Source: Shigella phage KNP5
Length of the DNA stretch: 64,000 nt
Direction: 5' to 3' (one strand)
Sequence record: KX452698
Within the stretch, counting starts at the first letter, position 1; every line of letters starts with the position of its first letter. Below, piece after piece: positions 15,845 to 57,988 of the stretch. Below the pieces are notes generated by a model. The model was not told the origin of the DNA. It saw only the letters and a program-made list of their open reading frames with translations, and made no database searches. The translations under genes were made by a program, and so were the position numbers.

Positions 15845-16873
<1,029 letters not shown>

Positions 16874-16883
16874 GTTATTTTCC

Positions 16884-17126
16884 TTAAACAGACTTTTTCA
16901 CAATTTTCCAATCAGCTTTAAACTGATCGACGTCAGAATGGTAAATCCAGAATCCTGCGCTTTCTCCATCTTCATAAAGAGGACATCCATCACATTCATC
17001 TTCCCATCCCATATCACGCAAAAGACGTTCAGCTTTTTCAATGAGTTCAGAATCTTTACCGATGATATTAAAATACCATTTACCTCTAACTTCTGAATCT
17101 TTAATGCTCTGACGTTGTAATCTCAT
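16884..17126 (-). CDS. hypothetical protein, 80 aa (frd.2-like)
   Basis: ORF track; early promoter upstream at about 17148-17181. Confidence 0.5.
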   Translation of the reverse strand: MRLQRQSIKDSEVRGKWYFNIIGKDSELIEKAERLLRDMGWEDECDGCPLYEDGESAGFWIYHSDVDQFKADWKIVKKSV

Positions 17127-17147
17127 TTTATTCCCCTTAGTTGATAG

Positions 17148-17181
17148 GGTAATAGTATCACACTACTACCCTACTGTAAAC
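17148..17181 (-). promoter_or_regulatory. T4-type early promoter
   Basis: Minus-strand GTTTAC then GTGTGATACTATTA. Confidence 0.5.
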
Positions 17182-17561
17182 TACTTTTTGAATGTTTTTC
17201 GCAAAAGTTCAATGATTTCGTCGACGTTATTTTCGTCTACAATGCAGTGAATTTTTGTTACGCCAGAAACCTTGTCTTCGATTTCATCTTCTTCAGAAGT
17301 CGGTTCTTTATATTCACGAAAACAATGAAATTCATCTTCGCAAATTTCTAAAAGTCTATCTTTAAGGTAAAAATGCTTTCCATTTGCGCATTCAATGTGT
17401 TTTACTGCTTTATATCCATTAGCGACGGAAACTTCTTTAACTTCAAACCATCCGCCATTATCTCGAATAGCTTTAACTATTGATGAATTGGAACGTGGGC
17501 TATAATTAATAAATGTATCAATAAGTCTTGGAACAAGTTCATACTTTTTGCCAATATACAT
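17181..17561 (-). CDS. hypothetical protein, 126 aa (frd.3-like)
   Basis: ORF track. Confidence 0.5.
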   Translation of the reverse strand: MYIGKKYELVPRLIDTFINYSPRSNSSIVKAIRDNGGWFEVKEVSVANGYKAVKHIECANGKHFYLKDRLLEICEDEFHCFREYKEPTSEEDEIEDKVSGVTKIHCIVDENNVDEIIELLRKTFKK

Positions 17562-17605
17562 TACGTTTTCCTCATTTTAACGGGGCTGTAATAGCCCCTT
17601 GATAA

Positions 17606-17836
17606 TTATTGTTCAATCAATCCCATGTAAAATTCTGCGTCTTCAGAATCCATGCCATCACAGTATTCATTAGCCATAAAGCGGGTGAGGTCTTCAAGAG
17701 GACCTTCAATGACAATAGAAAAATTGCAATAATTGGGATCATCGTGAATACTTGTGATACTAAGTTCAGGATAACGATTACGAATAATTTCTTCAATATA
17801 TTCAAAATCAACGATGTCAATATCAACTTTAGCCAT
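17606..17836 (-). CDS. hypothetical acidic protein, about 76 aa (start trimmed to MAKVDID)
   Basis: ORF track 17606..17857; internal ATG has better SD (AAGAGGAAA); occupies position downstream of gene 32. Confidence 0.45.
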
Positions 17837-17875
17837 ATTATTTTCCTCTTTAATCATCAGCAGTATTGCCGATAG

Positions 17876-17909
17876 TTGTATAGTACCATAAAGCTTTATG
17901 CTTGTAAAC
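17876..17909 (-). promoter_or_regulatory. T4-type early promoter downstream of gene 32 terminator
   Basis: Minus-strand GTTTAC, spacer, TGGTACTATACAACTATC. Confidence 0.6.
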
Positions 17910-17940
17910 CGTTTTGTGAAAAAATTTTTGAAATAAAAAA
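17904..17940 (-). repeat. ~37 bp promoter-upstream repeat, copy 1
   Basis: GTAAACCGTTTTGTGAAAAAATTTTTGAAATAAAAAA nearly identical to 34583-34620 and partly to 38393-38425. Confidence 0.6.
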
Positions 17941-17959
17941 GGGGACCTCTAGGGTCCCC
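17931..17959 (-). terminator. rho-independent terminator after gene 32
   Basis: GGGGACC-CTAGA-GGTCCCC followed by TTTTTTATTT on minus strand. Confidence 0.65.
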
Positions 17960-17981
17960 AATTAATTAGTAATATAATCTA

Positions 17982-18890
17982 TTAAAGGTCATTCAAAAGG
18001 TCATCCAGGTCCGTGTCATCAGCACTAGATGAACTGCCAGAGCTTGAGCTCATAAAATCATCTTCAGTTTTTGTATTGAAGTCATCAACATTGAATGCAT
18101 CCAAATCATCAGCAACTTTATCAGCTTTCTTAGCGGCAGTCGCTGCGGCACCACCCATAGCAGCAGTTCCCATAACTTGACTGAACTTAGTGCTCAGTTC
18201 TTCAAACGATTTGAATTTATCTTTAGAAGTCATTTCAGAAAGGTCAACCATTTGTTCGAACAGTTCTTTCTGGAAAGATTCATCATCAATGTTTGGAATC
18301 GCAGATTGATTCAGGAATTTAGATTCGTCGTAGTTACTAAAACCAGAAACTTGTTTAACTTTCAGTACAAAGTTAGCACCTTCCCACGGACAAGTTACAT
18401 CAACCGGAGTTTCACCCATTTCAACATCAACTGCAATCATTGCATTGATTTTATCCCAGATTTTCTTACCGAAGCGGTATTTAAATACTTTACCTTCATT
18501 TTCTGGAGCAGCTGGGTCTTTTACTACAAGAATGTTAGCCCAGTAAGAAGTTTTACGTTTAACAAGACCGTATTCTTTATTGTCAGTATTGTACAAATCA
18601 TTTTTACTGATGTACTGACATACTGGACAAGAATCGTAATCACCGTGGGTAGATGAACAGTTTTCAATATACCATTTACCATTTTTCTTGAAACCGTGAT
18701 TTACAAGAATTGCGAATGGTGCTTGTTCATCATTTTTAGACGGAAGAAAACGAATTACTGCTTGACCATTACCCGCGTTATCGAGTTTCAGTTTCCACTC
18801 GCCTTTATCTTCAGAAGAAAAACCACCTTTATTTCCAGCCAGTTTAGCCATTTGTGCAGCGAGTTCAGCAGTAGATTTACGTTTAAACAT
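17982..18890 (-). CDS. 32: single-stranded DNA-binding protein gp32
   Basis: 302 aa; sequence matches T4 gp32 as recalled incl. zinc-binding [10 protein letters not shown] region and acidic C-terminal tail. Confidence 0.93.
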
Positions 18891-18973
18891 TTTTATTTCC
18901 TTTTTAATTTAATTAACAGTTGGTGCTATGACGATGTATGACCTCATAGCTGGTCAGTGAGATAATTATAATC

Positions 18974-26979: not shown

Positions 26980-31102
<4,123 letters not shown>

Positions 31103-55109: not shown

Positions 55110-55321
55110 TACAAAAAGCCTCTTTGAAATTCGACTCTTTGAAATCCACCCCAGTCAGTGTATCGCATTTCAGCATTGAACTCGACTGAACCATCTGCAT
55201 GCATCATGAATGAATGCGTGACGATATCACAATCCCAGCTTTTCATACCCCATTTATCAGAGATAGCTTTATCAAGAACCTTCTGGAGGTCTTCATTTGG
55301 TTTAATCCAACGATTTAACAT
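55109..55321 (-). CDS. hypothetical protein, 70 aa
   Basis: ORF track; early promoter with TGGTATAAT upstream. Confidence 0.5.
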   Translation of the reverse strand: MLNRWIKPNEDLQKVLDKAISDKWGMKSWDCDIVTHSFMMHADGSVEFNAEMRYTDWGGFQRVEFQRGFL

Positions 55322-55345
55322 AGTGCTCTCCTTTATAAGATAATT

Positions 55346-55377
55346 CTATTATACCATACTTGTTTTGGAAAGTAAAC
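55346..55377 (-). promoter_or_regulatory. T4-type early promoter downstream of soc terminator
   Basis: Minus-strand GTTTAC, spacer, TGGTATAAT. Confidence 0.6.
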
Positions 55378-55387
55378 CGGTAAAATG

Positions 55388-55413
55388 AAAAAAAGGACTC
55401 CCGAAGGAGTCCT
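55388..55413 (-). terminator. rho-independent terminator after soc
   Basis: AGGACTCC-TTCG-GGAGTCCT followed by TTTTTTTCATTTT on minus strand; same hairpin sequence as at 2337-2356. Confidence 0.65.
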
Positions 55414-55420
55414 TAAATTA

Positions 55421-55657
55421 TTAACCACCTATTTGTGTAGGCGTAAACATTGCAGCATTCTTAGTTTTCCAATCAGCTGCATCAGAAACTACGGTAGAAT
55501 ATGCTGCCTTTTCAGAAGGAAAGATCTGATAATGAGAATCTGCGATACGATGCTCGTTAGAATAAATTTCAAACGGAACAGAAACTTCCATACCTTTAAC
55601 TTCTTTGCCTTCACCTGCTGGATGAGTAAAGGTCTTGATGTTAACGAAACCACCCAT
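55421..55657 (-). CDS. soc: small outer capsid protein Soc
   Basis: 78 aa; VNIKTF...FPSEKAAYSTV matches T4 Soc as recalled; followed by hairpin terminator. Confidence 0.8.
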   Translation of the reverse strand: MGGFVNIKTFTHPAGEGKEVKGMEVSVPFEIYSNEHRIADSHYQIFPSEKAAYSTVVSDAADWKTKNAAMFTPTQIGG

Positions 55658-55699
55658 AATAAACTCCTTTATTGTTTAATTACAGGTGTATTTATATCA

Positions 55700-56218
55700 T
55701 CAATAACCTCGGTCTTGACGAGCGAAGTTTTCAGCATTTTTCAGATAATAAAGTTTAAAGATTTCTTCAGCAGTAAGACCGAGACCTTGGAACATGTTCA
55801 GAACGAAATGAAGAATATCAATCATTTCGAATTTAATTTCCAACTGGTCTTGTGGAGACAAATCAGTAATTAAAGTTTCACGGCGTTCACCATGCTGTGA
55901 CTTCCAAGGTTTCCATACAGCAGATGCATCTTTTTCACCATTACTCATACCACCAAGAGAAGTCAGTAGTTCGCGGAATTCATCATCAATATAATCTTTC
56001 TGATTACGCAACCAATCAACAACTTCACCTGCAGTAGCCAAATCATCAGGATGACGGTTATATTCAGGTTTATCTTTAGCTAAACGAACCTGTAGAGATT
56101 TCTGCATATCAAGCATAACCTGCAGCGGGTCTTTTTCATCACCGAGAATATCCCAGTATTCATTTTGAGCTTTATCAGCGCCTTCAATCAGTTGTGAACA
56201 TTCATTAAAGTATGCCAT
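55700..56218 (-). CDS. 56: dCTP pyrophosphatase gp56 (MazG-like)
   Basis: Start trimmed to MAYFNECSQLIEG; about 172 aa. Confidence 0.85.
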   Translation of the reverse strand: MAYFNECSQLIEGADKAQNEYWDILGDEKDPLQVMLDMQKSLQVRLAKDKPEYNRHPDDLATAGEVVDWLRNQKDYIDDEFRELLTSLGGMSNGEKDASAVWKPWKSQHGERRETLITDLSPQDQLEIKFEMIDILHFVLNMFQGLGLTAEEIFKLYYLKNAENFARQDRGY

Positions 56219-56289
56219 TATTTTTCCTTTCAATTCATGGGTTAGTAGATTAATTATACAATAAATATATAAAGCAATAAGGAGGACAT

Positions 56290-56490
56290 ATGGTACAAAA
56301 ATTAATGGCACTTGTTAATGCCATAAAAGGTAATAAGAAACGTATAGCTTTTACTATTTCTGCTATGGTAGGAATTTTACTCTGGAATTTTGTTTTATCG
56401 CCAATTGCTATTGCTCATGGCGTTAATATTCCAGTAATTACTCTTGATACATTCGTAGATTTAGCATTTGCTTTAGTTGGGTTAATTTAA
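56290..56490 (+). CDS. small membrane protein, 66 aa, on the opposite strand between 56 and 61
   Basis: ATG with strong SD AAGGAGG; two hydrophobic segments; ends tail-to-tail with gene 61. Confidence 0.45.
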   Translation: MVQKLMALVNAIKGNKKRIAFTISAMVGILLWNFVLSPIAIAHGVNIPVITLDTFVDLAFALVGLI

Positions 56491-57515
56491 ATCTTAGCAT
56501 ATTTAGATAGCCGCATTTTAGCCATCAACCCTTGAGCAATATTATTTTTCATATATTCCATAATTTGTTTAGGGGTTGCACCTTCCTTTCTAATCATATC
56601 ATTAACATCTTTTGATTTCCAGGGGGATTTATCCCAAAACATAACCCTTTCTCCTGCATCAACCAATTTAGTCATTCGTTTAATAGTGTCAGGGTGACGA
56701 GGTTCATTATCTAAAACCCATACACGTCTATCTTTAAATGGAACAATTTCTAGGTCTAATTGACCACCCGTAATAGCTATACCATTTTCAATAAAAAGTG
56801 AATCTATAGGTCCTTCTAGAACATATACATCACCATCTTTGACTCGTTCGACTCCATATATTTTTGTTGCCTCAGGATAAGCTTTGATGGTGATATATTT
56901 TTGAGGAGCATCTTTCTTTAGTGCACGTCCTTGAAAAGACTCAGCTTTTCCGTTAGCATTATAAATTGGAATAACAAGACGAGGCTCAGGTATTTCCTTT
57001 TTATATGTTCCTGGCGCTATACTATTAACTAATTTAGGCCATTCGGTTGTAAACCAAAGATATTTCCATTTATCCTTTGGAATACAACGAGCTTTTACAT
57101 ATTTTATAATTGGATGGTCTTCCGCCAATTTATCTAATCTGATGCATGACGGAAGAGATTTAATTATTTTCTTCTCAGGTTGTTTAGGAAGTTCTTTAGG
57201 TTTTTCTACTGGACGACTTTTACCTTTTTCTTTTCTTATTTCAAAGATATACTCACGATATAAATCAGGTTCAAACTCCTTTAAATATATTCCGATTGGT
57301 GCATGATAGTTGCAGTTATAACAATGAATATTTCCTTCATTATTATCACCATAATACCATCCACGGGCTTTATTTTGGTCGGTTTTTGAATCTCCACAAA
57401 CAGGACATCTAAACCGTAATTTAAAAGTTGAACTATTATTTACTTGTGCAAATTTAGGTAAATGAGCCAATGCACGGTATGCAAACTCATTATCAATCCA
57501 AGGTATTGATGACAT
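56487..57515 (-). CDS. 61: DNA primase gp61
   Basis: 342 aa; N-terminal zinc finger CPVCGD...CYNC; TOPRIM region. Confidence 0.92.
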   Translation of the reverse strand: MSSIPWIDNEFAYRALAHLPKFAQVNNSSTFKLRFRCPVCGDSKTDQNKARGWYYGDNNEGNIHCYNCNYHAPIGIYLKEFEPDLYREYIFEIRKEKGKSRPVEKPKELPKQPEKKIIKSLPSCIRLDKLAEDHPIIKYVKARCIPKDKWKYLWFTTEWPKLVNSIAPGTYKKEIPEPRLVIPIYNANGKAESFQGRALKKDAPQKYITIKAYPEATKIYGVERVKDGDVYVLEGPIDSLFIENGIAITGGQLDLEIVPFKDRRVWVLDNEPRHPDTIKRMTKLVDAGERVMFWDKSPWKSKDVNDMIRKEGATPKQIMEYMKNNIAQGLMAKMRLSKYAKI

Positions 57516-57517
57516 TT

Positions 57518-57682
57518 TTACTCTTCTTTTTCTTTAGATTCCTCTTTTTTCTTTTTAGGAATCTGTTCAGGACCTTTATTTACTACAGCGCCTGACGTTG
57601 TTCCAGTGGAGATATTTTCAGGATTACCACCTGAATCTCCAGCGACCATATCTTCTTTAATAAATTCTTTAAACGTTTTCAT
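57518..57682 (-). CDS. hypothetical protein, 54 aa (61.1-like)
   Basis: Manual translation MKTFKEFIKEDMVAG...; SD GAGG upstream; below track size cutoff. Confidence 0.5.
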   Translation of the reverse strand: MKTFKEFIKEDMVAGDSGGNPENISTGTTSGAVVNKGPEQIPKKKKEESKEKEE

Positions 57683-57694
57683 ATTAGCCTCTAA

Positions 57695-57988
57695 TTATTC
57701 ACCTACCACTTCAGCGATGATATTTTTATTATTAAAGTTTTTATCGCAATACAGAACATAATTATACTGCATTACACCACCAGACTTAAGCTGTTTTTGC
57801 ACTTCAGCTTTCATTTCAGGACGGTCACGCTCAACGATATTCATAATATCTGCTTCAATTTGAGTTTCAACTTCAGTCTGATCTGCAGTCATAGACCATT
57901 CACACAAATCTTTGTCATAACCCGCCATAGCAGGCTGAGCAGCACAAGAAGATAAAGCAAAAATTGTAGCAAAGATAAATTTTTTCAT
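57695..57988 (-). CDS. sp: spackle periplasmic protein
   Basis: 97 aa with cleavable signal peptide; position between 61 and 41. Confidence 0.7.
   Translation of the reverse strand: MKKFIFATIFALSSCAAQPAMAGYDKDLCEWSMTADQTEVETQIEADIMNIVERDRPEMKAEVQKQLKSGGVMQYNYVLYCDKNFNNKNIIAEVVGE

Follow-up and report, generated by a model that had tools for sequence, protein, structure and literature searches.

In phage T4, the reference records (NC_000866, AF158101) give the gene order 56, dam (16846-17625) and 61 (17935-18963), with a gap of 310 bp between dam and gene 61 that carries no annotation. In phage T6 the order is 56/dam.1/61, and there is no dam at the locus. We examined the corresponding interval in Shigella phage KNP5 (sequence record KX452698), working from a stretch of 64,000 nucleotides that is called the window throughout. 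An earlier note on this DNA had placed dam between genes 56 and 61 on the T4 map, in agreement with the T4 records, and had reported that in the window only about 270 bp separate the two genes, occupied by a plus-strand open reading frame (ORF) of 66 codons that has a strong Shine-Dalgarno sequence and ends tail to tail with gene 61. The coordinates and features so described were all confirmed. Our overall reading, which we consider highly likely, is that the window holds the compact, cassette-free form of a variable slot, in which the small gene dam.1 is the constant part, two putative promoters are packed back to back, no Dam methyltransferase is encoded, and the Dam.1 product is probably a late protein of the inner membrane. 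The dam-less 56/dam.1/61 layout is in itself common and already annotated, in T6 and in hundreds of records, as is the dam.1 gene of T4T.

Between genes 56 and 61 of the window lie 268 bp (56219-56486), which hold a single ORF on the plus strand, identified here as dam.1 (Table 1). As dam measures 780 bp it cannot fit into this interval, and to that extent the earlier note was right to place dam outside it. The stop codon of dam.1 (56488-56490) and that of gene 61 (56487-56489) share the tetranucleotide TTAA (56487-56490), so the two genes are arranged tail to tail. The 56-61 segment is 100% identical to that of Escherichia phage KNP1 (KX452694) and 97-98% identical to hundreds of Tequatrovirus records in which the same three genes are annotated. 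Across the whole window the identity to KNP1 is ~99.9%, and several gaps in the KNP1 draft are filled by the window. KNP1 is an unverified draft of 165,831 bp, including 2,804 N, that is assigned to Tequatrovirus pss1; the exemplar of that species is pSs-1, which has a complete genome of 164,999 bp.

The gap that follows dam in T4 was found to hold this 66-codon ORF as well: 62 of 66 residues are identical, and both the Shine-Dalgarno sequence and the TTAA stop overlap are shared. In T4 this unannotated copy of dam.1 lies at 17738-17938 (+) of NC_000866 (4739-4939 of locus L001), and in T2 (NC_054931) at 2501-2701 of locus L010. The gene is missing from the annotation of the T4 references NC_000866.4 and AF158101.6 and of the T2 RefSeq record, but it is annotated as dam.1 in the re-sequenced T4T (HM137666, T4Tp032) and in T6 (MH550421); elsewhere the product is named RB32ORF030w, 'hypothetical protein' or 'putative membrane protein'. 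Studies mapped to the T4 references NC_000866 and AF158101 will therefore miss dam.1. The suggestion in the earlier note that the ORF is carried instead of dam does not survive this comparison: T4 and T2 carry dam.1 beside dam, and therefore dam.1 is the constant element of the locus and dam the variable one. What the window lacks is the T4 dam cassette, encoding a D12-class GATC N6-adenine methyltransferase, in the slot between the middle promoter of gene 56 and dam.1. The window gene is the same as dam.1 of T4T and T6, being 92-100% identical within Tequatrovirus and sharing position, orientation and the 4-nt stop overlap, but in T4 and T2 dam.1 adjoins dam and not gene 56, and the T6 record annotates a shorter dam.1 of 61 aa that starts from an internal Met. 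The T6 locus matches the window in the order 56/dam.1/61, but T6 is a different species (Tequatrovirus T6, where the window falls in the pss1 species group) and its soc gene is separated from gene 56 by soc.2 and T6ORF029, both of which the window lacks.

A database search of the 66-aa peptide, one of the checks proposed in the earlier note, gave a match to PHROG 2024 (function unknown) with E 5.4e-31, aligning residues 2-66 to profile positions 1-65 of 65. The gene is encoded beside gene 61 in ~690 phage records from at least three genera. Within genera, the ratio of nonsynonymous to synonymous substitution rates (dN/dS) of dam.1 is 0.12-0.30, while between genera the synonymous sites are saturated and the proteins retain 48-68% identity, with residues W32, N33, P38, G44 and P48 invariant. 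Variable sites number 48, 28 and 61 at codon positions 1, 2 and 3, respectively, a wobble pattern that is seen in the DNA alignment, and AGGAG or GGAGG is kept before the ATG in all aligned lineages. These data show that dam.1 is a real gene under purifying selection. The opposite proposal would be that the 66-codon ORF is not a gene, and that the interval is a regulatory spacer, with the gene 56 promoter and a terminator for gene 61, that is open by chance. In its favour, the spacer does hold a middle promoter, a terminator-like hairpin on the minus strand lies within the first codons of the ORF, the T4 and T2 reference records leave the ORF unannotated, and no expression data were found in the literature searched. 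We nevertheless regard it as barely credible, because the frame and its Shine-Dalgarno sequence are kept in Tequatrovirus, Mosigvirus, Gaprivervirus and two uncultured lineages despite synonymous saturation, and the hairpin is not conserved outside Tequatrovirus. A chance frame or purely regulatory DNA was rejected on the grounds of dN/dS and cross-genus conservation, and the hairpin was rejected as the cause of the conservation since it is confined to one genus. We also see that Gaprivervirus VR25 has two tandem, diverged dam.1 paralogs, VR25_031 and VR25_032 (2495-2692 and 2701-2901 of locus L008), which both match PHROG 2024; the second still does so with E 3e-27, at 23% identity to the window protein, and the pair represents a local duplication of a small membrane-protein gene. 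The family is otherwise narrow, as a profile search of 1.84 billion representative proteins returned only 7 hits, all close relatives or fragments. Scans of IMG/VR with single proteins returned 7 loci. Taken as a whole, dam.1 is a conserved, selected and uncharacterised gene for a small, predicted membrane protein.

The spacer between gene 56 and dam.1 measures 71 bp, and in it the two putative promoters stand back to back (Table 1). On the minus strand, the box TATTGCTTTA followed by 11 nt and TATAAT is, at the level of sequence, a perfect fit to the MotA consensus, given as (a/t)(a/t)(a/t)TGCTTtA at 12 +/- 1 bp from TAtaaT (PMC2988021). In the T4 record X01416, a mot-box and a -10 box, together designated P(M)16.53, are marked at the equivalent place upstream of gene 69/56, and the record of Yersinia phage fPS-2 annotates a 'predicted middle promoter' at the homologous site. 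The annotation of T4 puts oriA at the 5' end of gene 56, and the T4 records describe the oriA primer RNA as identical to the gene 56 transcript. We infer that the window promoter of gene 56 is homologous to P(M)16.53, which is the oriA promoter of T4, and that an oriA-type promoter has been retained. Common to both is a MotA box with a -10 box directly upstream of gene 56; the difference is that T4 P(M)16.53 lies between dam and 56, whereas the window copy shares positions with the putative late promoter and the Shine-Dalgarno sequence that serve dam.1 on the opposite strand.

On the plus strand, the box AATAAATA falls inside the spacer of the opposite-strand middle promoter. ATAAATA is rare in the window, with 13 occurrences on the two strands, such that 0.24% of 30-nt stretches contain one. 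In Tequatrovirus, Mosigvirus ST0, Gaprivervirus VR25 and the uncultured contig L022, a NATAAATA box stands 16-22 nt ahead of the ATG, within flanking DNA that is not alignable, while contig L020 carries TATTAATA at this position. An A at -13 is the commonest deviation among T4 late promoters, occurring in 9 of the 50 listed (PMC2988020). A TATAAATA-type box with a single deviation, which is the signature of a late (gp55-dependent) promoter, is thus found upstream of dam.1. These motifs suggest late expression of dam.1, in the direction opposite to that of the early and middle genes around it. The two promoters are held apart by the dam cassette in T4, whereas in the window they interleave within 27 bp. 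A third element, the terminator-like hairpin on the minus strand, has a free energy of -8.9 kcal/mol (z = -2.5), and the fPS-2 record labels it a terminator. It may act as a weak terminator of transcription coming out of gene 61. As it is restricted to Tequatrovirus and not conserved in Mosigvirus, we consider it a minor, genus-specific feature. An Rfam scan of positions 55300-57700 found no credible RNA family.

Table 1 Features of the interval between genes 56 and 61 of Shigella phage KNP5, in window coordinates.
Feature	Position	Strand	Basis and remarks
Gene 56 (dCTP/dUTP pyrophosphatase; dCTPase), 172 aa	55700-56218	-	ORF list; relatives 97-98% identical annotate dCTPase or NTP pyrophosphohydrolase
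Putative MotA-dependent middle promoter of gene 56	56253-56279	-	MotA box TATTGCTTTA (56279-56270), 11-nt spacer, -10 box TATAAT (56258-56253), read from sequence
Late-promoter-like box AATAAATA, A(-13) variant of TATAAATA	56260-56267	+	22 nt upstream of the dam.1 ATG; motif match and conservation
Shine-Dalgarno sequence AAGGAGG of dam.1	56279-56285	+	4 nt 5' of the ATG
dam.1 (RB32ORF030w; PHROG 2024), 66 aa, predicted small membrane protein	56290-56490	+	ORF list, PHROG match
Terminator-like hairpin AUGGCAUU-AACA-AGUGCCAU followed by UAAUUUUUGU (U-run)	56305-56324	-	Scan; within the first codons of dam.1
Gene 61 (DNA primase), 342 aa	56487-57515	-	ORF list and annotation of relatives

To see how widely dam itself is distributed, T4-type dam DNA was counted in 184 phage records and a Dam protein of at least 90% identity in 182, as against ~501 records with dam.1 at 80% amino acid identity or more; therefore, about two thirds of Tequatrovirus records are without dam. 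A literature search on dam distribution in T4-like genomes found nothing relevant. T-even phages are commonly polymorphic for dam, and classical T6 itself has the dam-less layout. For any given Tequatrovirus, the methylation state, the restriction sensitivity and the triggering of methylation-sensing defences should be judged from the content of the slot and not from the T4 default; one such defence, retron Ec86, is activated by a phage-encoded methyltransferase (PMC12871103). The slot is empty in the window, T6 and pSs-1, holds dam alone in T4, and holds dam together with an ORF of 181-186 aa in T2 and most dam+ isolates. In fPS-2 it is occupied by a NUMOD3 homing endonuclease, g030c (780-1430 of locus L012, minus strand), which stands between 56 and dam.1, reuses the gene 56 upstream region and has a stop codon that overlaps the gene 56 start. 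The slot between 56 and dam.1 is a hotspot for mobile cargo.

The layout 56(-)/dam.1(+)/61(-), with dam.1 convergent with 61, is shared by vB_SsoM_113, pSs-1 and T6, and by all four outgroups examined, namely Mosigvirus ST0, Gaprivervirus VR25 and the uncultured Tevenvirinae contigs L020 and L022, which have no dam; in T4T, dam.1 (+) is likewise convergent with gene 61. Because all four outgroups show the dam-less layout, the compact form would most simply be read as ancestral. The competing account, in which a dam+ ancestor within Tequatrovirus lost the gene by secondary deletion, seems to us rather unlikely, but it has some evidence on its side. Apart from this difference, dam+ and dam- genomes share 95-98% identity and recombination between them is evident, more distant T4-like genera carry Dam homologs at 46-61% identity, and T4 itself resembles a partial deletion of the two-gene cassette of the T2 type, with 112 bp where T2 has a predicted nuclease gene of 546 bp. 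Against such a deletion are the compact arrangement of all four outgroup lineages and the state of the window itself, where the promoters are interleaved in a single 27-bp stretch and no cassette remnant is seen.

A second check proposed in the earlier note was a search for a Dam-type methyltransferase with a DPPY motif, and this gave no Dam homolog in the window, KNP1 or pSs-1 and no DPPY in the window. With T4 Dam as the tblastn query, the best E value was 0.43 in the window, ~1 in the KNP1 draft and 1.0 in the complete pSs-1 genome, while the same search recovered Dam from the T4, T2, L016 and L017 loci at E ~1e-174; T4 Dam matches PF02086 with E 6.7e-51. The DPPY motif does not occur in the six-frame translation of the window, [DN]PP[YFW] gives three matches in KNP1 open frames of at least 100 codons, and no product in pSs-1 is named as a methyltransferase. 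From the lack of a Dam homolog in the window, KNP1 and pSs-1, it follows that this phage very probably encodes no Dam. That dam has been relocated or replaced by another adenine methyltransferase, with the phage still methylating GATC itself, is an idea that draws on the window being 64 kb of ~165 kb, on the 2.8 kb of N in KNP1, and on Dam homologs found at other map positions in other T4-like genera, e.g. Slopekvirus and Krischvirus. We judge it extremely improbable, since the E values of 0.4-1 in the three sequences contrast with ~1e-174 for the controls, and pSs-1 has no methyltransferase-named product and KNP1 only three [DN]PP[YFW] motifs in its long frames.

The earlier note had concluded further that the phage lacks Dam methylation. 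The part of this that concerns the gene is supported by the searches, in that no Dam is encoded, but unmethylated DNA does not follow from the sequence because the host Dam may still act on phage DNA. For T4, a footnote credits partial GATC methylation to host Dam together with the T4 enzyme (PMC7653180). The assay with DpnI/MboI that had been proposed would be poorly suited to the question, because T4 DNA with glucosylated hydroxymethylcytosine (glucosyl-hmC) resists 94% of type II enzymes (PMC7653180).

The Dam.1 protein was next considered by modelling and composition. An AlphaFold2 model with a predicted local distance difference test score (pLDDT) of 75 places helices at residues 2-12, 16-42 and 52-62. 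From the N-terminus, the protein comprises a basic amphipathic helix (2-12), K13, a KKR cluster (16-18), a predicted transmembrane helix (~19-42) that contains the invariant W32, N33 and P38, a loop (H43-T51) with the invariant G44 and P48, and a C-terminal helix (52-62). The peak of hydropathy is at residues 24-36, with the 19-residue Kyte-Doolittle mean rising to 2.0 around residues 28-33. The five basic residues (K4, K13, K16, K17 and R18) all stand before the long helix, and D53 and D57, the only acidic ones, come after it, so that a hydrophobic helix of ~20 residues with positive-inside flanks, as in an integral membrane protein, is predicted. Of the two hydrophobic segments described in the earlier note, the first stands as a clear transmembrane helix at ~19-42, and the second needs qualification, as it is shorter, hydrophobic or amphipathic, spans ~52-62 and contains D53 and D57. 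On the basis of the model and the promoter motif, we infer that Dam.1 is a small late inner-membrane protein. In the most likely predicted topology, the N-terminus is cytoplasmic, a single helix spans the membrane, and the short amphipathic helix at the C-terminus lies in the periplasm; alternatively, the protein may form a helical hairpin. Scans against Pfam and NCBIfam gave no family for Dam.1, and a Foldseek search of viral structures returned its own homolog and two proteins of 63 aa, at 27% identity and TM-scores of ~0.55-0.6. One of these matches, BFVD A0A6B9Y0M4 from Enterobacter phage vB_EclM_CIP9 (63 aa, 27% identity, TM-score ~0.55), may be a remote homolog in a T4-like phage.

As to function, an accessory role in the envelope or in lysis timing is our best guess, held with low confidence. 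Class II holins, such as S68 of phage 21, are of a similar size to Dam.1 and also have hydrophobic helices, and in both cases late expression is presumed. The more specific proposal that Dam.1 is itself a holin rests on its being small, predicted to be membrane-embedded and probably late, and on one homolog, from phage OE5505, that is labelled 'Holin' in UniRef and BFVD. All remaining sources label the protein hypothetical, however, and Dam.1 differs from the class II holins in sequence, family match, C-terminus and context. There is no match to a holin family in Pfam or NCBIfam, the charged hydrophilic C-terminal tail is absent (Dam.1 ends ...ALVGLI), and its neighbours are a dCTPase and a primase, with no endolysin or spanin. 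Moreover, pSs-1 already carries a T4-type holin, annotated at 161529-162185. With these hallmarks lacking, the holin assignment was rejected, and we hold it to be very unlikely.

Putting these observations together, the constant part of the slot is dam.1, on the strand opposite to the surrounding early genes. The minus-strand MotA middle promoter would drive gene 56, while the plus-strand AATAAATA late promoter and the strong Shine-Dalgarno sequence would drive dam.1. About one third of Tequatrovirus genomes have an accessory cassette lying between dam.1 and the promoter of gene 56; in the window, as in T6, the slot is empty and the phage very probably encodes no Dam, and Dam.1 would insert into the inner membrane late in infection. 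Several points weigh against this reading. In every lineage the first position of the putative late box departs from TATAAATA, and contig L020 is without ATAAATA. For dam.1, the literature searched gave no evidence at the level of transcripts, ribosome profiling or proteomics, and searches on RB32ORF030w, PHROG 2024, dam.1 and T4 ribosome profiling or small ORFs yielded nothing relevant. Neither homology nor structural matches nor neighbouring genes point to a particular function for Dam.1. With a window of 64 kb and 2,804 N in the KNP1 draft, the absence of dam rests partly on the relative pSs-1, and the screen covered homology of the T4-Dam type (D12 class) and product names, with very different methyltransferase classes not profile-searched. 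Finally, ancestral absence and repeated loss of dam are inseparable without a phylogeny of the flanks.

The cassette that fills the slot in other phages has a composition of its own. In T2, dam is adjoined by T2_032 (1865-2410 of locus L010, minus strand), a member of PHROG 8706 (function unknown). Proteins of this family, of 181-186 aa, are found at full length in 147 records and carry an invariant RRFDIVI...KHIIEIKHQ motif of the D...EXK type. Five of seven members gave sub-threshold matches to Pfam DpnII (PF04556), the best with E 8e-5. An AlphaFold2 model of the protein has a predicted TM-score (pTM) of 0.79, and its top neighbours in the Protein Data Bank (PDB) are mostly PD-(D/E)XK nucleases, at low TM-scores of ~0.4. 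Most natural dam+ isolates carry this predicted nuclease gene adjacent to dam, so that in nature dam mostly travels with it, but it is missing from the T4 laboratory strain. Natural dam cassettes may be a GATC restriction-modification-like module, may derive from one, or may be a selfish module.

No other 4-base palindrome is as depleted in these genomes as GATC, which has an observed-to-expected ratio of 0.31 in the window, 0.36 (0.357) in pSs-1, 0.355 in KNP1 and 0.335 in dam+ T4 (OZ035787); the next-lowest 4-base palindrome has a ratio of ~0.7. That the depletion results from lacking dam was rejected, as dam+ T4 is equally depleted (0.335 against 0.357), and a Dam enzyme of the phage likewise fails to account for it, the depletion being equal with and without dam. 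Marker exclusion is known for SegF, which is encoded next to gene 56. Homing-endonuclease-driven marker exclusion has also been reported for SegB and MobE in T-even crosses. One speculation, which we think quite improbable, is that the empty slot is the unoccupied target of a selfish module of Dam and a DpnII-like PD-(D/E)XK nuclease, as in T2 and ~147 other records, which would cut the GATC sites of dam-less genomes in mixed infection and convert them, much like the marker exclusion just described, and which would perhaps add to the approximately threefold GATC depletion of T-even phages; separately, dam.1 would be an unrecognised late membrane factor that the T4 reference annotation leaves out.

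Other differences were seen in the surroundings of the locus. In the gap of 55658-55699 between soc (55421-55657) and gene 56, the window has neither segF nor ORFs of the soc.2 type, while at this place T4 has segF, and T6, T2 and vB_SsoM_113 have soc.2 and another small ORF (T6ORF029 in T6). This gap is a second variable slot, on the other flank of gene 56. In pSs-1, positions 27323-28165 are annotated as a beta-glucosyl-HMC-alpha-glucosyltransferase, which we take to belong to the gentiobiosyl pathway of the T2/T6 type and not to correspond to T4 beta-gt. If so, this is consistent with a lineage that resembles T6 in its DNA-modification genes, as it does in the absence of dam. Beyond gene 61, the window lacks gene 61.2, and sp (57695-57988) begins after only 12 bp (57683-57694) following 61.1 (57518-57682). 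Other phages do have gene 61.2, with a length of 627 bp in both T4 and T6 and of 327-357 bp in T2, vB_SsoM_113 and pSs-1, so that its absence is a further indel, even relative to pSs-1 of the same species.

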